Assembly: GCA_045594705.1 (NCBI GenBank)
Contig: JAZNZB010000090.1
Location: 20,679-84,678 of the forward strand
Direction of reading: 5' to 3'
Length of the DNA: 64,000 bases
Origin: Eubacteriales bacterium
GTDB taxonomy: Bacteria > Bacillota > Clostridia > Oscillospirales > CAG-272
In this document: positions 7,353 to 64,000 of the stretch, piece by piece
Numbering within the stretch: position 1 is the first letter of the stretch
How the letters are laid out: every line of letters begins with the position of its first letter
Notes under the pieces: generated by a model
What the model was told of the DNA's origin: nothing
What the model saw: the letters and a program-made list of their open reading frames with translations, nothing else
Database searches by the model: none
Translations under genes and position numbers: made by a program

Positions 7353-8414
7353 TTATTTTACATAGAACTTGAATTCTGTTGTGGTGTTATACAGGTCTCC
7401 GGGGCGAAGCACGCAATTGGTAAATTCGGGATGATTGGGGCTGTCCGGCATGATCTGCGTTTCCAAGCAGAAGGCGTTCTGCGTTGCCTTGCGGTAGCCG
7501 CCAAAGAACGGATGCCCGTCATCAGTCAGGAAGTTGCCGCTATAGAACTGTACACAAGGCAAATCGGTGCGAACGTCCATCGCCCTGCCCGTTTTGGGAT
7601 CGTATGCAGTTGCAACACGCTTAATTTTGCCATCAAAGTTCTCAAAGCACCAGCAATGGTCGTAGCCACCTGCAATTTTGAGATCCTTGTTTTCGGTAAA
7701 GAAATCTTGTCCGATTGTCTTTGCTTGTCTGAAATCAAACGGTGTACCCTCAACAGATGCAATCTCGCCTGTCGGAATAAGATTGTCGTCAGTTTTGAGA
7801 TAACGGTCTGCATCCATTTGCAGTACCTGGTCAAATACCTTACCCGAAGCGAATCCGGAAAGGTTAAAGTAAGCATGATTGGTCATGCTGATTACCGTGG
7901 GCTTGCTTGTCATTGCCTTATAATCAATTGCCAACGTATCGTCTTCGGTGATGCGGTACGTTACGGTAATCGTCAACTCTCCGGGAAATCCCTCTTCCAT
8001 ATCGGGAGAGATCATGGAGAAGTAGACGCTGGGCTGAGTTGTGTCAGAATAGGACGATGCCCAAACCTTGTGAGAAAAGCCTACCTTTCCGCCATGCAGC
8101 GTGTTCTTACCGTTATCGTTGGGATAAAGCTGATATTCATTTCCGTCAAGCGAAAATTTTGCACCGCCGATGCGGTTTGCATATCTGCCCACCAGAGCAC
8201 CGACGTAACCGTCGGAAGCTATCAGATCAGCAAGGCTGTCATAGCCGCAAACAACGTTTGTAAAGCATCCATTACGATCGGGTGTTTCAATCCCCATCAG
8301 AGTACCGCCAAATTCACACACCTTGACGCGAATACCGCCCGTGTGATGCTGAAGCGTATAACAATACACCTCTTGTCCGTCCGGCATATAGCCAAATAAT
8401 TCTTTTGTGACCAT
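7353..8414 (-). CDS. galM: Aldose 1-epimerase (galactose mutarotase)
   Basis: 353 aa. LHGGKVGF, NHAYFNL and CLETQIMPDSPNH segments are typical of the aldose epimerase family. Confidence 0.88.
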   Translation of the reverse strand: MVTKELFGYMPDGQEVYCYTLQHHTGGIRVKVCEFGGTLMGIETPDRNGCFTNVVCGYDSLADLIASDGYVGALVGRYANRIGGAKFSLDGNEYQLYPNDNGKNTLHGGKVGFSHKVWASSYSDTTQPSVYFSMISPDMEEGFPGELTITVTYRITEDDTLAIDYKAMTSKPTVISMTNHAYFNLSGFASGKVFDQVLQMDADRYLKTDDNLIPTGEIASVEGTPFDFRQAKTIGQDFFTENKDLKIAGGYDHCWCFENFDGKIKRVATAYDPKTGRAMDVRTDLPCVQFYSGNFLTDDGHPFFGGYRKATQNAFCLETQIMPDSPNHPEFTNCVLRPGDLYNTTTEFKFYVK

Positions 8415-12331: not shown

Positions 12332-13315
12332 ATGAAAGCCACGAAACTCCTCTCCCTTGTTTTAATCACTCTGCTTCTCTGCTCTGTATTTGCTGCCTGC
12401 AACAACGAAACAAAGCAACCCGAAACACCCAATGTCATGGTATTAAACGGTACCACCGGATTCGGCATGGCAAAATTGATTTCTGATAGTAAAAACAATG
12501 CAACCGCATATTCTTATAACTTTTCCGTAGAAACAGATGCTTCCAATATCACTGCAGCGCTGATCAGCGGGAACTGCGATATCGCAGCTCTGCCCACAAA
12601 TGCTGCTGCAAACGTTGCGCAAAAATCCAATGGCGGTATCAAGGTTATCGCTATCAATACACTTGGTGTATTGTACGTCATGAGCAACAAGGATACTCAG
12701 GAAATCAACAGCTTTGAAGATTTGCGCGGAAAAACTGTTTACTGCCCCGCACAAAACCCCACCTTCCTCTTTAAAGCGGTTTGCGAGGCAAACGGCCTGA
12801 AGGTTGGCGAGGACATCGTCATCGATAATACCTACGCCCAGCCTGCAGATTTGCGTACGGCACTTGTATCCGGTGTCGTGGATCTTGCTGTGCTGCCCGA
12901 GCCTATGATGACGATTGCGAAAAGTGCAAACTCTTCCTTGACCGCTTCCCTTGATTTGACCGCAGAATGGGAAAAGCATTTTCCCAAGGATTCTCTGATG
13001 CAGGGATGCCTTGTTGTGCGTACCGAATACTTGGAAAAGAACGAAACGCTTGTTAAGAAGTTTTTGGAAGAATATAAGGCTTCTATCGAATTTGTAAACC
13101 AAAATCCTACTGAAGCCGGCAACATGATCGTGGAAGCGGGTATTTTCGGTCAAGCTCCCGTAGCAGCCAAGGCAATTCCCAACTCCAATATTTGCTATAT
13201 TGACGGAGCGGACATGAAGGCGGGCCTGCAAAAATTCTATGAAGTGCTTCTGGCAACTGCGCCTGCGTCGATAGGTAATGCGCTTCCGACCGAGGACTTC
13301 TACTATGTCCCCTAA
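12332..13315 (+). CDS. ABC transporter substrate-binding lipoprotein (NMT1/SsuA/TauA-like)
   Basis: Signal peptide with lipobox VFAAC. Operon context with a permease and an ATPase. Confidence 0.75.
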   Translation: MKATKLLSLVLITLLLCSVFAACNNETKQPETPNVMVLNGTTGFGMAKLISDSKNNATAYSYNFSVETDASNITAALISGNCDIAALPTNAAANVAQKSNGGIKVIAINTLGVLYVMSNKDTQEINSFEDLRGKTVYCPAQNPTFLFKAVCEANGLKVGEDIVIDNTYAQPADLRTALVSGVVDLAVLPEPMMTIAKSANSSLTASLDLTAEWEKHFPKDSLMQGCLVVRTEYLEKNETLVKKFLEEYKASIEFVNQNPTEAGNMIVEAGIFGQAPVAAKAIPNSNICYIDGADMKAGLQKFYEVLLATAPASIGNALPTEDFYYVP

Positions 13316-19123: not shown

Positions 19124-19786
19124 ATGTACGCACAAGTTGCTTCAGTAGGACTCGTATTTACAGCTCTCAATGAACACGAATGTGCCCTTTCGGGTATCGG
19201 GACATGTCATGATAACCATATCGTGATTCCGATGCAGCATATGGGTCGTAACGTTGTAGGCATTGCGGATATGGCTTTTGCTCATAATCATGATATTGTC
19301 TCTGTGATGGTGCCTTCTTCTGTAAAAGCAATCGGAGACTATGCGTTTGCTTGGTGCCACAATCTTCACGCAGTCACTATTGAAAATCATGCTGTCAATT
19401 CTATTGGAGAAAGATGCTTTATCGGTTGCGACAAGCTGACGCAGCTTTATCTTGGCGATAGCCTGACGACGATCGGCGAGAAGGCGTTTGCATTCTGCGC
19501 TTCAATCAGAACGCTCGCGCTCCCCTACGGTACAAGAACGGTTGGTCACTCCGCTTTTGAAGGCTGCAGATCCTTGGAAACCGTGATCCTGCCCGAAACG
19601 CTCAATACGCTCCCGAACAACATGTTCGGTGCCTGCATTTCGCTGACCTCCGTTTCCCTTTCCAGTCTGACAAGATCGATCGGCTATTACGCATTCTCCT
19701 ATTGCCGCAATCTGCGTCACATCAACGTCGGAAACGCCGTCGTAGACGAACAAGCCTTCTATGGTTGCGAGTCTTTAGCAAGCTAA
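19124..19786 (+). CDS. Leucine-rich repeat (BspA-type LRR) protein, no signal peptide
   Basis: Repeated units of about 23 aa, such as IGDYAFAWCHNLHAVTI, IGEKAFAFCASIRTLAL, VGHSAFEGCRSLETVIL and IGYYAFSYCRNLRHINV. Confidence 0.75.
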   Translation: MYAQVASVGLVFTALNEHECALSGIGTCHDNHIVIPMQHMGRNVVGIADMAFAHNHDIVSVMVPSSVKAIGDYAFAWCHNLHAVTIENHAVNSIGERCFIGCDKLTQLYLGDSLTTIGEKAFAFCASIRTLALPYGTRTVGHSAFEGCRSLETVILPETLNTLPNNMFGACISLTSVSLSSLTRSIGYYAFSYCRNLRHINVGNAVVDEQAFYGCESLAS

Positions 19787-19804
19787 AGAAAAATCGTTCA
19801 TATA

Positions 19805-19838
19805 AAAAAGATCGGATTTTCCATATCCGATCTTTTTT
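19805..19838 (+). terminator. Rho-independent terminator after the LRR gene
   Basis: aaaaagatcggat-tttccat-atccgatctttttt. Confidence 0.8.
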
Positions 19839-19863
19839 GTTTGGAATAATTTGTGCAAAATGC

Positions 19864-19892
19864 TTGCAATTACACTATATATATGGTATACT
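19864..19892 (+). promoter_or_regulatory. SigA-type promoter of GH78 copy 2
   Basis: TTGCAA (19864-19869), 17 nt, TGg-TATACT (19887-19892). Confidence 0.65.
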
Positions 19893-19926
19893 TTCCTTGT
19901 ATAACACATCATACGGAGGTATGCAC

Positions 19927-22452
19927 ATGAAAGATATGTTGAGCGCCGGTAAGGCCAAGTGGATCTCCTTTGGCTATCCGGGAGAAAATGAACATACAGA
20001 GATCTCCAATCCTTGGGAAAACAAGCTGGTTATGACCGATCAGTTCAAGGCGATCGAGACAAGACACGGTCTTTCCCTGTTCCGCAAGAACTTTTCCGCT
20101 ACCAAAAGTGGCAAGGTCACCATAGACGCAACCGCGCTTGGAATTTTTGATCTGTACTGCAATGGCAAGAGAGTTGGTCGCATTGACGAGAATGGCAACG
20201 AGGTCTTTGACGAGCTCAAGCCGGGTTATTATGAGTTCAGAAAAAGAGCTCTCTACTTCAGCTACGACTTGACTCCTTATTTGGTTGACGGCGAGAACGT
20301 ATTGCTTGCAGCTGTCGCACCCGGTTGGAGAAACGGCCGTATTGCCTTTAATGCCTTTGAAGGCGAAAACGAGGCGTTCTTTGCCAAAATCACCGTGAAT
20401 GACGACGTCATTTACACCGACTCCGACTGGATGGCTACCTGGGGCGGCAGAGTTCGTGCTGCTGACATCTGGGATGGCGAGCTTTATAATGCAAATTATC
20501 CTTCTTATAATGAAATGAGTACTGCCGGATACGACGTGTCCGATTGGAGCACTTCCACTGTTGTGACACAGGACATTGAAATCACGCCCTTCATCGGTCC
20601 TACCGTCATGGTGCGCCCCGAGCTGACAAGAAAGCCGATTTCCTTGACCGTTCATGAAGGAACGATTGACAACGGCACCGAGCACGGCGAGATCAACGTC
20701 GTATATGCAGCAGAAAATCAAGAAGCGATCAGCCTCAAAAACGGTCAGGTGCTGACTTACGACCTTGGGCAGAATATGGTTGGCTGGCCTGTCATTACCG
20801 TCAAGGGTAACGCCAAGACCACCATTCAGCTGCGCGCTGCAGAGTTTCTCAACGACAGCGGCTCCGAGGCTCGCGGAAACGACGGTCCCAAGGGCTCTGT
20901 CTATACCATCAACTACAGAAGTGCCCGTGCAAAGGCTTATTACATTTTGGGAGGAGCACCCGAGGGGGAATCCTATCAGCCCACTTTCTCCTTCTTTGGC
21001 TTCCGTTATATTGAAATCACCGCTGACAGCGATGTGGAGATTCTTTCATTCCGTGCTGACGTCATCGGCTCTGCTACCCGCGAGACCGGCAAGATGGAAA
21101 CCTCCAATGCTCTGGTCAATCAGCTGATCTCCAACATCATCTGGGGTCAGCGCGGCAACTACCTCTACGTTCCTACCGACTGCCCTCAGAGAGACGAACG
21201 TCTTGGCTGGACGGGCGATACGCAGATCTTCTGCAACACCGCTGCATATAACGCGGACGTTCGCTTGTTCTTCCACAAGTGGCTTCAGGACGCAAGAGAT
21301 AGCCAGGCGGACTGGGGCGGCTACCCTGACGTCATCCCTGCGGCGCGTGTCGTAGGCTGTGGCGGTGCAGCATGGGGCGATGCAGGTATCATTGTTCCCT
21401 ACGTCATGTGGAAAATGTACGGTGACGTAGAACTCCTTCGCGACCACTATGACTCCATGGTAAAGCACATGAATATGCTTGAAGCACGCGACATTGAAAC
21501 GCCGCACAAGCACGCTGCATACGGCGACTGGCTGGCTTATGAGCCCTCTGATCACTGGATGGTTTCGGTTTGCTATGCTGCATTTGATGCACGCCTGATG
21601 GTTCAGATCGCTCAGGTTCTGGGCAAGCATACCGATGCCAACCGTTTCCGGAATTACTTCAATGCTCTGAAGCATCGTTTCATAACCTTCTACTGCGATG
21701 AAAACGGTGATCTCTTACCCCAGCATCGTACCCAGACCGCTTACCTGCTGGCTCTGAAATTCGATCTGCTGGCAGAAAAGAACAGGCCCACTGCAATCGC
21801 TGCACTGCGCCGGAAGATCATTGACAACGGCCACAAGCTGTCCACAGGCTTTGTCGGAACGGGCATTCTTGCTCAGACGCTTGCCGAGATCGGAGAAAAC
21901 GATCTTGCTTATTCCCTGCTTTTGCAGCGTGAGAATCCTTCCTGGCTGTATTCCGTTGACCAGGGTGCTACCACCATTTGGGAGAGATGGAACTCCTACA
22001 CGCTGGCAACCGGCTTTGGCAACGTAGGCATGAACTCCTTCAACCACTATGCATACGGTGCTATCCAGGAATGGATGTACAGACACGTTGCCGGTATCGA
22101 ATACGATCCCGCAGCTCCCGGCTTCGAGCGCGTGATCCTGCAGCCCAAGCCCGATACAAGAACCGCAGACGAGCTGCCCGAGGGTCAGGAGAATATCAAG
22201 TATGTCAACACCTCCTACGACTCTTACCACGGTACCATCGTCTCCAACTGGTCGACCGAGAACGGCTTTACCTACTACTGCGAGGTTCCCGTTCCCACAA
22301 GACTGTATCTGCCTATCCTGACCAAGAACGACTGCTTCACGCTGGACGGCATCAGCCATAAGTTCTCTGAGTTCAAGCAGGCTGCATACAACGCAAGACT
22401 TAACAGAATTGTGATCGACCTCGCTCCCGGTAAATACGAATTCAAGATGTAA
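19927..22452 (+). CDS. Alpha-L-rhamnosidase (GH78), copy 2
   Basis: TDCPQRDERLGWTGDTQIF motif. The start is set at the ATG 7 nt after GGAGG (19915-19919). The track's 19702 start would read through the LRR gene, its terminator and a promoter. Confidence 0.88.
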   Translation: MKDMLSAGKAKWISFGYPGENEHTEISNPWENKLVMTDQFKAIETRHGLSLFRKNFSATKSGKVTIDATALGIFDLYCNGKRVGRIDENGNEVFDELKPGYYEFRKRALYFSYDLTPYLVDGENVLLAAVAPGWRNGRIAFNAFEGENEAFFAKITVNDDVIYTDSDWMATWGGRVRAADIWDGELYNANYPSYNEMSTAGYDVSDWSTSTVVTQDIEITPFIGPTVMVRPELTRKPISLTVHEGTIDNGTEHGEINVVYAAENQEAISLKNGQVLTYDLGQNMVGWPVITVKGNAKTTIQLRAAEFLNDSGSEARGNDGPKGSVYTINYRSARAKAYYILGGAPEGESYQPTFSFFGFRYIEITADSDVEILSFRADVIGSATRETGKMETSNALVNQLISNIIWGQRGNYLYVPTDCPQRDERLGWTGDTQIFCNTAAYNADVRLFFHKWLQDARDSQADWGGYPDVIPAARVVGCGGAAWGDAGIIVPYVMWKMYGDVELLRDHYDSMVKHMNMLEARDIETPHKHAAYGDWLAYEPSDHWMVSVCYAAFDARLMVQIAQVLGKHTDANRFRNYFNALKHRFITFYCDENGDLLPQHRTQTAYLLALKFDLLAEKNRPTAIAALRRKIIDNGHKLSTGFVGTGILAQTLAEIGENDLAYSLLLQRENPSWLYSVDQGATTIWERWNSYTLATGFGNVGMNSFNHYAYGAIQEWMYRHVAGIEYDPAAPGFERVILQPKPDTRTADELPEGQENIKYVNTSYDSYHGTIVSNWSTENGFTYYCEVPVPTRLYLPILTKNDCFTLDGISHKFSEFKQAAYNARLNRIVIDLAPGKYEFKM

Positions 22453-59834: not shown

Positions 59835-59840
59835 GGAAGC

Positions 59841-59870
59841 AGGCACTCGCAATAAAGCGAGTGCCTTTAT
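59841..59870 (+). terminator. Terminator hairpin after the his operon
   Basis: aggcactcgc / gcgagtgcct 10-bp stem with an aataaa loop and a short tttat tract. Confidence 0.65.
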
Positions 59871-59877
59871 CAATTCA

Positions 59878-60084
59878 TTGCAGCATGCGCCGATCATCCG
59901 CAACTTCTATTTTCGCGACAGTAAGTGCCGTGACGAGGATTACCGCAAGGCTATGAACGAGCTAACATCCTTCTCTTTCACGGCGAAAAACCTGCATGAC
60001 GACGCGGCTGATTCCCTTGCCATGATGGCGGGGTATCTGTCTGAGAGACCTAAGGTGGTCACGGTGGCAAAGAGACCGTTTTGA
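59878..60084 (+). pseudogene. Remnant of a phage terminase large subunit (extreme C-terminus only)
   Basis: The 68-codon frame IIRNFYFRD ... YRKAMNELTSFSFTAKNLHDDAADSLAMMAGYL reads like the conserved C-terminal tail (..HDDAxDAL..) of TerL proteins. No ATPase domain, RBS or ATG is present. Confidence 0.55.
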
Positions 60085-60091
60085 TATAGCA

Positions 60092-60124
60092 AAACGCCCC
60101 CAAAATCGGGGGCGTTTGTTGTTT
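60092..60124. terminator. Bidirectional terminator between the terL remnant and the collagen-like gene
   Basis: aacgccccc / gggggcgtt stem with tttgttgttt on the plus side and ttttg on the minus side. Confidence 0.75.
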
Positions 60125-60157
60125 ATAATCCTATAACAATATTTCCAAACCATAAAG

Positions 60158-62398
60158 TTACGGTGATTTACCGTCCTCGCCATGTGAAGGATGAACGGAA
60201 ATGGTTGCTGTGACTGTCGTATAGCCATAGCCGATTAACACGAATGCTTCAAGATCAGTCACGTTGCCTTGCTTATCGATTGTATAGCTTTCCAAGGTAA
60301 TGACAGGCTCTGCAAAATCACTGCTAAGATGCTGATTAACAAAAACCTCAATGGCATCAATCAATGCCTGGTCACTGTCAATCTTCTCAAAGGTATAGCT
60401 TGCACTCTCGATCGCCTCCTTGGCTTTTTTCGCAGGATCAATTTCGTAATTCTCCAGAACGGTCACTGTATACGGCGATTGCAAAGCAGCATTAACTGCT
60501 GCCTGAGCAATTTGCGTATACTCTACAGGCAATTCCCCAAACACAGGTGATTGGGGAACGTCGATGAATGTTCCTCCATCAATCCACAGTTCCTCGGGGA
60601 TGAGATATTTTGCAAAGGTTTGCGCAACGATATAACCACCAAAAGTGTATGCTATATGTACGTCATCACGCTGGAGACCGATCACGGTTTCTTTATCGTC
60701 CGAATAATTCAGCAACCCCAGATACGTTGTTCGGGCATTTTGAACAGCTGTACCGACTGGAATAACGCCATCAAAGCTTCTGCGCGTTCTATTTCCTTTG
60801 TATTCCATGAGTTGCTTAGTCATGGCTACAATCTGCTCATATTCGGTAAGCCCTGCGTTCAAAGTTGTCGTATCGGTTGATTTCTGCCAAATCATATAGT
60901 AATATATTTTTGCTTCCGGAGCATTTTCCGAAACGTAATCAAGCATATACGGAACAGAATTCTCTATGGGCAGAAAAGCTGCATCTTCTCCCTCCAGTCC
61001 TGTTGCCAAGCCCGAATTCACTTCTGGGAAAAAGCCCTGTACTGTCACAGCATCCCATTGCTTGAGAGATATAATGTCGCTAAGCTTATGAAGCGGTTCA
61101 TCGTCATAGACCCATATGCCTGTCTCGGCCTCGTAATATCGATGCTTATATGAGGGTTCATCGGAAGACACCTGTGTTGCATGCCACGCAAGTGTTTTGG
61201 CTGCATTAATTGCCAAATGTACATCCACCTTTGTATTTTCGCCCAGCAGGGACTTAATCTGCTCGCAAAGTTGTCTAGCTGCATCATGTGAAAAACTATT
61301 ACCGATCAGCAATATGCGGTAAGGTCTTGCATCGGTAAAATCCTCCACATAACTTGCACCACAACCACAGCTATACGTAGTAAATCCTCCCTCTGTATAC
61401 GTCGGTTCAGTCACATTCTCATCAAAATCATGCATATGCCCATCTGTAAATTCAATTATGATCTGTTCATTATCATAATCGTCAAGCGTAATCGTCCCCC
61501 AAGTATCTCCCGATTTCTTGCCAATAGAAATAGCCAACAAGCCATCAGTATGAATAACGTATTCTCCTGTTCCTGTCACCCACGGTCCAAGGCTCAGCCA
61601 CTCGTTTGATTGACTGCTTGACACGATGTTGAAAATCATTTGCAGACCGTCAAGATCATAGTGAATTACAGTTCCTGCGCTAACGTAGATCAATTCACCA
61701 ACGCGAAGTCGTGTCGTTGAGTTATGTTCCTGACCGTAATAGTACGAGCCTTGCTCTATGTCAAATTTTGAGATCTCCAAATAATTGCCATCGGGATCAA
61801 TCTGATAACAATTCGTGCATTTACCATGAACATAGATATGCCCCATTGCGTCCACATAGTCCGTTACATATGAATCACCGCAAATGCAGCTATGGTTGGT
61901 ATAGCCCTGCTCGGTGCAGGATGCAGGAGTAATAACAATATCATAATCGTGCGCGATCTTATCGATTAATCCTGTTTCGGAGTGATTGCAGATTACGCAA
62001 AAACGTATTTTCATGCCGGTTTGCGTGCACGTGGGAGCAATAACAACGAACCAATCACTATACATGTGCGTACATTCAGGTTTTTCTGGAATATATACGG
62101 GATCAAGAACTGTACCATCAGTCAGCGTAATGATCAAACGACCTTGCTCATCAACTTCAATCTTTTCAATGGTAGCACCCGTTTCACCCTGCTCGCCTTG
62201 CTCGCCCTTTTCACCTTGGATGCCCTGCTCGCCTTGCTCGCCCTTTTCACCTTGGATGCCCTGCTCGCCCTGCGGGCCTTGTTCGCCTTGGATGCCTTGC
62301 TCGCCCTGCGGGCCTTGCGCTTCCTGTGTGTCACAAGCTGTCAAAAGCACCGAAAGCATCAGCAGACAAGCCAAAACCATAAAAGCCAATTTCTTCAT
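60158..62398 (-). CDS. Lipoprotein with a collagen-like G-X-Y repeat, Cys-rich repeats and an SGNH/DUF4886-like C-terminal half
   Basis: The ATG at 62398 follows ggagg. Lipobox LLTAC is followed by 16 uninterrupted G-X-Y triplets. Cys-motif repeats include [29 protein letters not shown] and [31 protein letters not shown] looks like an SGNH block I. Confidence 0.75.
62171..62314 (-). repeat. Collagen-like triplet-repeat DNA including a perfect 36-bp tandem duplication
   Basis: 62188-62223 is identical to 62224-62259 (cctgctcgccttgctcgcccttttcaccttggatgc). A further imperfect copy extends to about 62317. It encodes [12 protein letters not shown]...GETGAT. Confidence 0.9.
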
Positions 62399-62614
62399 TT
62401 CTTCCTCCAAAATCAAAAAACCATTTATAACAAAAATGATAATTTAATATTATTTTATCACTTTTCCCATAATATGTAAATGCAACTATCATACAAATAT
62501 AATGATAAATAATTGTGTAAATCCGCCATTGGCATTTCGTGCTTTTACTAAAATGCTACATCTAGTATTGGTAGGGTTTACTACATCAACATTTGGTGTT
62601 ATAGTACAGATAGA

Positions 62615-62917
62615 ATGCTGACGCCAAGGTGGGTAACAGTGAGCTACGGCCGAAGCAAAATCTACTCCGATACTAGAGAAATAACGGTAGCCAATGTCAA
62701 GGACGAGGTCAATAAGGCGGGCGCGGTACACTGTCAAAACCAGTCCGAAACCCCGACGCTGTGGAAAGAATTTCGGGGTCAGACCAAGATATTACAGAAA
62801 ACAAAAGAGATCCACGAGGAAATCAATCACAAAATCAACGAAAACCGCGCGTACGAGATTTCTTTATTCACATATAAAAAACCGCGATGCATTATACATC
62901 GCGGTTATCTGTATTAA
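62615..62917 (+). pseudogene. Remnant of a phage portal protein (N-terminal ~75 codons, SPP1 gp6-like)
   Basis: The frame ...LWKEFRGQTKILQKTKEIHEEINHKINENRAYEI resembles the N-terminal block of SPP1-type portals (YYxGxxxIL.R.K....EINNKI..N.A.EIV). Similarity ends near 62866, and the frame then runs through a neighbour's terminator hairpin. Confidence 0.5.
62876..62906 (-). terminator. Rho-independent terminator after the Gfo/Idh/MocA gene
   Basis: aaccgcgatg / catcgcggtt 10-bp stem, followed on the minus strand by tttttatatg. Confidence 0.8.
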
Positions 62918-62927
62918 ATCTTATGCT

Positions 62928-64000
62928 TTATTCCCTCTCGCAAAATGCGCCGTTTGTGAAATCCGGGAAGTCTACGGGGGCTCCGCCCTTGGCGATCGAC
63001 ATTTCGGACAGAGGTGTCACAGCCATCCAGGCAGCTGCGTCGTAGACGTCGATGGGGCAAGGCGTGCCGTTTCTGACAGCCTCGATGAACGCATCGTAAA
63101 CAAGACCGTCCATGCCGCCGTGGCCGCCGCGAATGCCTTCCTTGAGATACTTCTCCCAAACGGGATGCTCGTACTTTTCAAGATACTTTTCCGCGTTGTT
63201 CCACTGCACAGACCAATTCCAATGGTCTGCGGGCGTGAAATCGGAATCTAAGTAAACCGAGTTGTTGTCTTCCATGTACATGCCCAGCGTGCCGCGCACG
63301 GTAAATCTTCTGCTGTATGCTCTGGGCAGCGTTGTATCAAGGCTGAGCGTAATGGTTTCGCCGTTGGCGCACTTGATGATGGTGGTTACCACGTCGCCCT
63401 GTGCGAAATTCGCAGTCTGCAGAGCGGGATTGACGTTTTCGTGCTGTCTTGCATACTCGTTCATGCCGCGTGACTTGCTTGCAACCGAAACAAGATTCAA
63501 GAATCTGTTTCCTCTGTTGATACCCAAAATCTGCGCGATCGGGCCAAGCTCGTGCGTGGGGTAGTTCTCGCAGTTTCTGTGCAGATAATTGCGCAGTCTG
63601 TAGTGTCTGTTTTCTTTGCCATAAGCGACCTCATCGCGCAAATCGTGGCAATAGCCGCCCTCGCAATGCACGATCTCGCCAAACAGCCCCTGTTTGATCA
63701 TATTCATGACCATCATCTCAATTCTGCCGTAGCAGCAATTTTCAAGGAACATAAAGGGCGTTTTGGTGCGCTCGTAAGCGCGGACCATATCCCAGCATTG
63801 GTCGATCGAATAAGCACCGCCGACTTCCATACCTACGGCAATTCCCTTTTCCATGGCTTCAATGGCGATCGGCACGTGGGATTCCCACGAAGAAAGGATC
63901 AGTACAGCATCCGCAAGTGCGGGATCAAGCACCTCATGCCAGTCAGTACTTGCGAAAGGCTTTACAAATCCACGTCCTACAATGGTATTCACAGCCCAAT
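62928..64000 (-). CDS. Gfo/Idh/MocA-family oxidoreductase (GH109-like), N-terminus beyond the window edge
   Basis: The frame is open to the window end. Only the C-terminal alpha/beta domain and part of the Rossmann domain are visible (AVLILSSWESHVPIAIEAMEKGIAVGMEVGGA). Confidence 0.7.
   Translation of the reverse strand, partial: WAVNTIVGRGFVKPFASTDWHEVLDPALADAVLILSSWESHVPIAIEAMEKGIAVGMEVGGAYSIDQCWDMVRAYERTKTPFMFLENCCYGRIEMMVMNMIKQGLFGEIVHCEGGYCHDLRDEVAYGKENRHYRLRNYLHRNCENYPTHELGPIAQILGINRGNRFLNLVSVASKSRGMNEYARQHENVNPALQTANFAQGDVVTTIIKCANGETITLSLDTTLPRAYSRRFTVRGTLGMYMEDNNSVYLDSDFTPADHWNWSVQWNNAEKYLEKYEHPVWEKYLKEGIRGGHGGMDGLVYDAFIEAVRNGTPCPIDVYDAAAWMAVTPLSEMSIAKGGAPVDFPDFTNGAFCERE

Follow-up and report, generated by a model that had tools for sequence, protein, structure and literature searches.

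The DNA considered here is a window of 64,000 nt from Eubacteriales bacterium (CAG-272; assembly GCA_045594705.1, contig JAZNZB010000090.1, 20,679–84,678 of the forward strand), and the element in question is an island at window positions 59871–62927 (all numbering refers to the window), where the end of a phage large-terminase gene (terL′) and the start of a phage portal gene (portal′) stand on either side of a complete lipoprotein gene, between hisIE and a convergent gene of Gfo/Idh/MocA type (Gfo). The same two fragments are found around different lipoprotein genes in relatives, and for this reason the cassette looks like one of a recurrent, exchangeable type and not like a one-off dead prophage. 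The favored explanation, to which a probability of roughly 0.55 is assigned, is that the island is a phage moron slot captured in the chromosome, with arms that would let the cargo be swapped by homologous recombination. The “slot” is the terL–portal spacer between the two arms, and the features are listed in Table 1.

The frame that follows the hisIE terminator, which translates as ...QHAPIIRNFYFRDSKCRDEDYRKAMNELTSFSFTAKNLHDDAADSLAMMAGYLSERPKVVTVAKRPF, had been taken in a preliminary description for the C-terminus of a large terminase lacking both an ATG and a ribosome-binding site (RBS), and the searches bear this out. The protein of this left arm reads QHAPIIRNFYF...LHDDAADSLAMMAGYLSERPKVVTVAKRPF (coding positions 59881–60081, stop codon 60082–60084) and corresponds to the C-terminal 68 residues of the Clostridium phage Maintenon large terminase (tblastn, E 6e-10), reaching the stop of that gene. 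In IMG/VR it matched 15 contigs at 63–90% amino-acid identity, the closest pair being formed with the TerL C-terminus of contig L002 (60/67 identical, 90%, E 8e-46), and on its own it matched phrog_38 (terminase large subunit) at profile positions 660–711 of 760 (E 9.3e-5), the same family that the full-length TerL homologue in phage contig L004 hits at E 2.6e-53. A Pfam search with the full-length TerL gave zero matches, and the assignment came from PHROGs. The arm is not a complete gene, i.e., the N-terminal ATPase domain and the start codon are absent and the homology begins abruptly past the hisIE terminator, at 59881 and not at 59871, where the fragment had first been placed.

The second frame had been read as the start of a portal of the SPP1 type, an identification that was confirmed via the portals of phage contigs. 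The protein begins VSYGRSKIYSD..., remains homologous as far as ...NENRAYEI at 62860, and shares about 60% identity with the portal N-termini of L004 and L002, the same phage contigs that the terminase fragment matched (E 5e-38); the full-length portal homologue of L004 is SPP1 Gp6-like (PF05133, E 9.7e-72). Of the profile searches that had been proposed as a check, the one with terL′ gave the phrog_38 match, while the short portal′ fragment alone stayed under the PF05133 cut-off of 25.5 (14.6 bits, E 0.017, profile positions 11–52). The fragment is far from full length, with 74 homologous codons against a protein of ~470 residues, and its open frame continues into unrelated sequence and, as had been noticed, across the terminator of the convergent gene, to a stop at 62915–62917. 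At the DNA level the phage homology spans 59880–60086 and 62577–62863, comprising 205 nt of the terL 3′ end and 222 nt of the portal 5′ end and amounting in total to ~0.5 kb with no complete phage gene. The distance from the terL stop to the portal start is 2554 nt, which agrees with the gap of 2.5 kb given earlier; what that account had missed is that ~65 nt of phage intergenic DNA are also retained, with the portal promoter at 62577–62605 (TTTACT-17-TGTTATAGT, the −10 being TATAGT, with TG).

What the corresponding junction looks like in intact phages was surveyed in 45 related IMG/VR contigs. There, the gap from the terL stop to the portal start is usually 80–315 nt (78–315 nt across the intact relatives), in keeping with the earlier statement that they normally lie near each other, and 5 of the 45 contigs hold unrelated cargo of 0.8–3.4 kb at exactly the same point. 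The insert of L007/L132 (871 nt) encodes a Zn-ribbon protein and a DUF2085 membrane protein and is preceded by a terminator and a promoter, that of L106 (3.4 kb) encodes a membrane Zn-ribbon protein and, on the minus strand, a sigma-70-region-4 protein, and those of L121, L126 and L127 measure 0.8–1.2 kb, with HNH endonucleases seen in L121 and L126. In one insert-bearing phage contig a terminator follows terL, like in the window. The terL–portal spacer in related phages is a native variable cargo slot. The window cargo sits precisely in this spacer, past the stop and terminator of terL and ahead of the portal promoter, with the stop and the promoter undamaged, and the native slot together with the undamaged insertion point supports the “moron” part of the earlier idea. 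The gene has a promoter-like site and a terminator of its own and is placed between two genes that are adjacent in relatives, as a moron would be; its residence is chromosomal, not in a phage or prophage genome.

The frame recurs with other cargo. When portal′ was searched against 5.8 billion proteins, only 8 matches were returned, all of them short open reading frames (ORFs; 65–112 aa) of 66–96% identity, and each consisted of a portal N-terminus followed by an unrelated tail. Three of the loci examined are at hisIE/Gfo: L226 (Gfo side seen), with a portal′ that is 96% identical and ends at the same breakpoint, beside a minus-strand gene for a 377-aa lipoprotein with collagen and leucine-rich repeat (LRR) parts; L227/L228, two independent assemblies in which hisIE, terL′, a plus-strand gene for a 293-aa LRR lipoprotein, portal′ (same breakpoint) and Gfo follow one another, the terL′ of L227 carrying a 5-nt frameshifting deletion; and L230, with a minus-strand collagen-type lipoprotein gene and a portal′ cut 4 codons earlier. 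In L223–225 (contigs of as much as 32 kb from three or more assemblies) the interval between MatE and a MiaB-like gene holds terL′, the same hairpin, a plus-strand gene for a 272-aa LRR lipoprotein, a terminator, the portal promoter and a portal′ of 50 codons, and in L229, L234 and L235, which represent further sites, portal′ lies beside other genes.

Across the hisIE/Gfo sites of other contigs, the MatE/MiaB site and others, the arms are 78–96% identical at the nucleotide level (terL′, 85% to the L223 arm and 78.5% to the L227 arm), and the homology between the window and the other cassettes ends exactly at the slot borders (60117–60144 on the left, 62553–62597 on the right). The hairpin after terL′ is kept in L223 and L227 and also in L226, which at its left end has no more of terL′ than a few nucleotides before the stop; the portal promoter, RBS and GTG start are kept in most remnants examined, with a weaker −35 in L227. 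The arms are the conserved frame, and the gene between them is the variable part. Wherever the contig allows a view, the remnant is linked to a lipoprotein gene, and no chromosomal copy with terL′ directly against portal′ was seen among the loci. The right-hand cuts lie at no fewer than six different positions (portal codons 50, 65, 70, 74, 80 and 83 of ~470) and are tightly clustered. An exhaustive search of representative sequences found many more short portal N-termini with unrelated tails, in numbers made unreliable by 50% clustering and fragmentary contigs.

The way in which the arms have diverged was followed by Nei–Gojobori counts, with p values against the neutral expectation. For terL′, the window and L227 (same locus, 43 codons) differ by 14.8 synonymous and 6.2 nonsynonymous substitutions (pN/pS 0.14, p 8e-6), or by 6.5 and 5.5 over the outer 21 codons (0.20, p 0.015), and the window and L223 by 18 and 8 (0.13, p 4e-7); for portal′, the counts are 15.5 and 14.5 against L227 (0.24, p 6e-5) and 6 and 2 against L226 (0.09, p 0.0014). 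For comparison, pS between the hisIE genes of the window and L227 is 0.51. By these counts the arms diverged under purifying selection, which decay in situ would not predict. The bias is present although terL′ has no start codon, lies behind a terminator and is frameshifted in L227, which argues that the variation arose in working phage genes. The simplest reading would be that phage genes still in function generated it, and that it reached the arms through repeated capture or through recombination by which the arms are renewed. In a tree of portal′ the remnants are polyphyletic among phage portals, and their grouping disagrees with the locus: L230 pairs with L234, the window and L226 fall with L223 and L229, and the phage nearest to L235 is L007. 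As the nearest full-length portals reach only ~75% identity, the presumed donor phages would be unsampled.

Under the favored explanation, the island would be a chromosomal copy of the terL–portal cargo slot of an SPP1-portal-type tailed phage family of ruminant-gut Clostridia. The arms of ~200 bp would serve as homology arms, through which cargo and arm sequence could be traded with related phages (whose slot is also variable) and with other copies of the cassette, and the whole unit may pass between strains via recombination in the flanking hisIE and Gfo genes. For the host, the benefit would presumably be a variable, independently transcribed surface lipoprotein. That recombination is at work, which way the transfer went and what the cargo does are what we infer from comparing sequences. 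If the arms act in this way, they would provide a route for trade in surface-protein genes between phage and chromosome that needs neither integrase nor transposase; a short phage-junction fossil would then act as a landing pad through which a locus for host surface lipoproteins stays variable, and tiny annotated “phage gene fragments” could flag sites of active exchange instead of dead DNA.

Several points weigh against this explanation. The selection estimates come from 43–74 codons with 8–30 substitutions per pair, in pairs that are not independent of one another, and selection on small ORFs inside the arms could be the source of the purifying signal instead. Most of the comparison loci are short metagenome contigs, and the organism is known only for the loci in metagenome-assembled genomes (MAGs) of GTDB. 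Full-length portals come no closer than ~75% to the main remnant clade or its consensus, and no recombination event was observed directly. The proteins most similar to the cargo (49–50% identity) are P0121, which has a dockerin, and P0001, both of cellular type; the neighborhood is chromosomal around P0121 and around the more distant P0004, and the contig of P0001 consists of the gene alone. A scan of viral contigs with the cargo lipoprotein found nothing, and no phage contig with any lipoprotein gene in the slot came up in the viral and metagenome scans. Delivery of the gene by a phage, as the preliminary description had it, would be no more than a possibility.

The same description had offered a choice between a prophage that carried a moron at the terL/portal junction and then lost everything else, and a cassette that was inserted into a junction fragment already decayed. 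In the former case, a temperate phage with a lipoprotein moron would have integrated between hisIE and Gfo and two deletions would have removed the rest, leaving the flanks as neutral leftovers. Such decay in place would account for arms that are genuine phage DNA in native order and orientation, with the cargo exactly in the spacer and both frames still open, and prophages are well known to decay while useful cargo is retained (PMC6379469). It is nevertheless unlikely as a one-off event, since neither the window nor any of the related genomes fetched has a prophage, an integrase or an att-like repeat at or close to this place, the arms recur elsewhere and around different cargo, all of the at least six breakpoints lie within a small part of the portal gene, the divergence of the arms is mainly synonymous and not neutral, and there are conspecific genomes without the cassette. 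What survives of this idea is the position of a moron, in a spacer where phages do carry cargo; the notion of a single, private relic does not. The other half of the choice fares worse. A cargo of cellular type that varies between copies of the frame is what secondary insertion of a lipoprotein cassette would leave, yet several separate insertions, in either orientation, would have been needed in one and the same stretch of ~25 nt from the terL terminator to the portal promoter, a stretch that related phages show to be the native cargo slot, and the idea is accordingly held to be improbable. Least credible of all is a chimeric assembly of phage and chromosomal reads joined at shared sequence: most of the comparison contigs are indeed short metagenome assemblies, but the structure is present in the window and in independent assemblies (L227 and L228; L223, L224 and L225, including a Logan assembly), with contigs that reach 32 kb and consistent junctions.

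A different use of the arms, about as doubtful as decay in place, would be as domesticated decoys. Terminase C-termini dock on portals, and a portal N-terminal peptide of the first 50–83 residues, made from the retained promoter, and possibly the portal-docking tail of TerL, might be kept as small functional peptides that disrupt the head assembly or the DNA packaging of related phages; the lipoprotein would then be a passenger, whether linked or independent. This would explain why the clustered breakpoints always leave 50–83 portal codons with, in most remnants examined, promoter, RBS and start codon, as well as the purifying selection, with pN/pS at 0.09–0.36 even between copies of the same locus and breakpoint; furthermore, a 43-codon ORF (MNELT...RPF) outlasts the frameshift in L227 and is called as a gene there. 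On the other side, terL′ has no promoter or RBS and lies downstream of a terminator, its outer 21 codons are equally biased toward synonymous change though out of frame in L227, the ORF tails past the breakpoint are unrelated between copies, and a PADLOC search of portal′, terL′ and the lipoprotein gave no matches.

Among systems described elsewhere, phage morons share with the island a promoter-like site and a terminator, a place between genes that are adjacent in phages, an orientation independent of the flanks and a cell-surface product; they differ in that the island is not in a phage genome and retains only ~200 bp of each neighboring phage gene. The SopE cassette of Salmonella, a gene that is bordered by constant flanks, occurs in unrelated prophages and has spread by homologous recombination (PMC7380047), resembles the island in having cargo bracketed by constant flanks that recur in several contexts, with flank recombination as the likely means of spread. 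In the present case, unlike in SopE, the constant element is the frame, which consists of pieces of two essential phage genes, and the cargo varies; the contexts are chromosomal instead of prophages. Defective prophage remnants, whose recombination with phages has been reviewed (PMC6379469), are likewise chromosomal phage-derived DNA homologous to functional phages, and the variation of the arms looks imported; the island is set apart from them by being minimal, recurrent and lipoprotein-linked, with clustered breakpoints, and by lacking an integrase, att repeats and further phage genes. Finally, variable surface-protein or inverton loci are comparable in that the hisIE/Gfo site holds alternative surface-lipoprotein genes, one of which (in L019) has inverted repeats around a promoter and a tyrosine recombinase; the window cassette has neither such repeats nor a recombinase, and its frame is phage-derived.

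Table 1. Features of the island and its borders (window positions).
Feature	Position	Strand	Remarks
hisIE terminator hairpin (chromosomal)	59841..59866	+	left island border; 10-bp perfect stem
terL′ (left arm)	59881..60084	+	last 67 codons of large terminase and stop; no start codon, no RBS
GC-rich hairpin terminator	60092..60117		between terL′ and convergent cargo gene; part of conserved frame
Cargo, 746-aa lipoprotein gene, intact	60158..62398	−	RBS GGAGG, signal peptide, lipobox LLTAC, collagen stalk, Cys-rich modules, DUF4886, C-terminal domain
DUF4886 (SGNH-hydrolase-like) domain, putative esterase module	60599..61318	−	PF16227, 79.8 bits (cut-off 26.7), E 2.1e-22
Collagen-like repeat, ~15 G-X-Y triplets	62177..62311	−	PF01391, 36.7 bits (cut-off 27.2), E 3.6e-9
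Promoter-like site of cargo gene	62452..62480	−	TTTACA-17-TAAAAT with TG, 10/12 consensus matches
Retained phage intergenic DNA (~65 nt)	62577..62638	+	portal promoter and RBS; aligns with terL–portal spacer of L004
portal′ (right arm)	62639..62860	+	first 74 codons of SPP1 Gp6-type portal; GTG start
Terminator of Gfo/Idh/MocA-type convergent gene (chromosomal)	62880..62906		right island border

That an intact minus-strand lipoprotein gene with its own RBS and terminator splits the junction had been described correctly. The signal peptide and the lipobox were assigned by eye, and the DNA of the collagen region is a 9-nt periodic repeat. The DUF4886 domain matches PDB 4i8i at E 2.4e-8, and the motifs GNS (G366-N367-S368) and DxxH (Asp578/His581) are invariant in a three-sequence alignment of the cargo with P0001 and P0004. 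Collagen-like repeats form trimers, and the product is probably a surface lipoprotein in which a trimeric stalk carries an esterase of the SGNH type. Homologues bear dockerin, SLH, cohesin or LRR modules, which points to an extracellular enzyme, probably a glycan esterase. In a metagenome scan with an alignment of the lipoprotein, only distant DUF4886 proteins (24–30% identity) appeared among the matches listed, none of them beside terL or portal, and viral scans with the LRR cargo proteins gave only unrelated phages in which the LRR proteins lie elsewhere in the genome.

Relatives of the window were found by a HisIE scan with one genome per species and are MAGs of ruminant-gut Clostridia with HisIE 93–98% identical. 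The alignment of the hisIE–Gfo interval, which had been suggested together with a search for empty sites and intact prophages, did yield the former: in L022, L024, L025, L027, L029 and also L028 (read directly) the interval is empty, i.e., 40–55 nt with one hairpin, and in L023 it holds ~200 nt of unrelated sequence. No prophage was present at this site among the related genomes fetched. In the three nearest relatives (L017, L019 and L020) and in L026, the place is taken by a minus-strand gene whose product is an LRR lipoprotein of the BspA type, and neither terL nor portal sequence is found there; a neighbor-joining tree of the his region nests the window within the clade of L017, L019 and L020. 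One genus offers three states for comparison, namely empty, with a BspA lipoprotein and an apparently invertible promoter, and with a phage-framed lipoprotein. L227 and L023, the latter without a cassette, share 99.2% identity over the hisIE fragment of L227, and for the Gfo fragment of L230 the identity to L022, where the site is empty, is 94%. Identity in the flanking his genes goes up in the direction of the island in every comparison, so that it is uninformative on recombination.

No direct repeats of the att type flank the island, although a search for them had been recommended; a 13-nt similarity between 59880–59892 and 62940–62952 was judged to be due to chance, as the surrounding sequence does not support a target duplication. 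Base composition was likewise set aside as a sign of foreign origin (44.3% GC in the island against 46.2% in the window, only the his operon being higher), and no further phage structural homology was found in the 64-kb window.

With regard to the borders, each related species (L022–L029; window 59835–59880 and 62864–62927) has its own terminator hairpin between the convergent genes, which suggests that these terminators turn over quickly; a stem similar to that of the right border (ACCGCGA...) is present in L020 and L029. In L021, another gene, possibly of an insertion sequence, apparently starts ~140 nt past hisIE, and L018 has other unrelated sequence there.

The BspA-LRR cassette of L019 (12153–13260) contains two perfectly complementary palindromic repeats of 25 nt, 197 nt apart, of the form ACCACATAAT-TCGC/GCGA-ATTATGTGGT; the related positions in L017 and L020 are 8354–8377 and 12516–12541. 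In L019 they bracket a promoter (TTGACA-17-TATAAT) and adjoin a gene for a 279-aa XerC/D-like tyrosine recombinase. In L017 and L020 this promoter is directed at the lipoprotein gene, in L019 the other way, and the arrangement looks like a phase-variable invertible promoter. With up to 3 mismatches allowed, the palindrome has 0 matches in the window. In L020 (12600–13000), ~400 nt of GC-rich non-coding DNA with repeated CCTAATTCGCGG-like motifs separate the promoter of the LRR lipoprotein gene from the Gfo terminator, and an Rfam search of L020 gave no matches.

In the phage slot itself, free-standing HNH genes (phrog_374/3377) are located at L121:9593–10213 and L126:6736–7551, and the gap in L127 is ~1.1 kb; homing-type double-strand breaks could be a reason for a recombination hot spot at the junction. 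In phage contig L104 (6627–13341), the genes after terL encode an NYN-domain protein, a secreted protein of 350 aa with His/Cys repeats and a C-terminal anchor, an amidase-like product and a surface protein of 964 aa; the amidase-like ORF is on the plus strand and the other three are on the minus strand. There is no portal within 8 kb, and the arrangement could represent a very large cargo region or a rearranged prophage. In L229 (610–1554, minus strand), the portal′ is cut past codon 65 and abuts the 3′ end of a gene for a 315-aa tyrosine-recombinase-like protein, which has a weak match to Phage_int_SAM_4 and catalytic-region motifs that were read by eye. In L227 (1975–2391), Gfo is 96% identical to that of L023 over the last 207 nt and very different in a central segment, which suggests a recombination breakpoint inside the gene. 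Elsewhere in the window, 19124–19786 (with the adjacent ORF 19702–22452) has a tblastx similarity of 34% over 117 aa to the region upstream of terL in phage contig L132; L004, from the same phage family, has a resolvase-type serine recombinase upstream of terL, and if the matched region is assumed to be that recombinase, the two window ORFs could be a resolvase/transposon-like pair, unrelated to the island.

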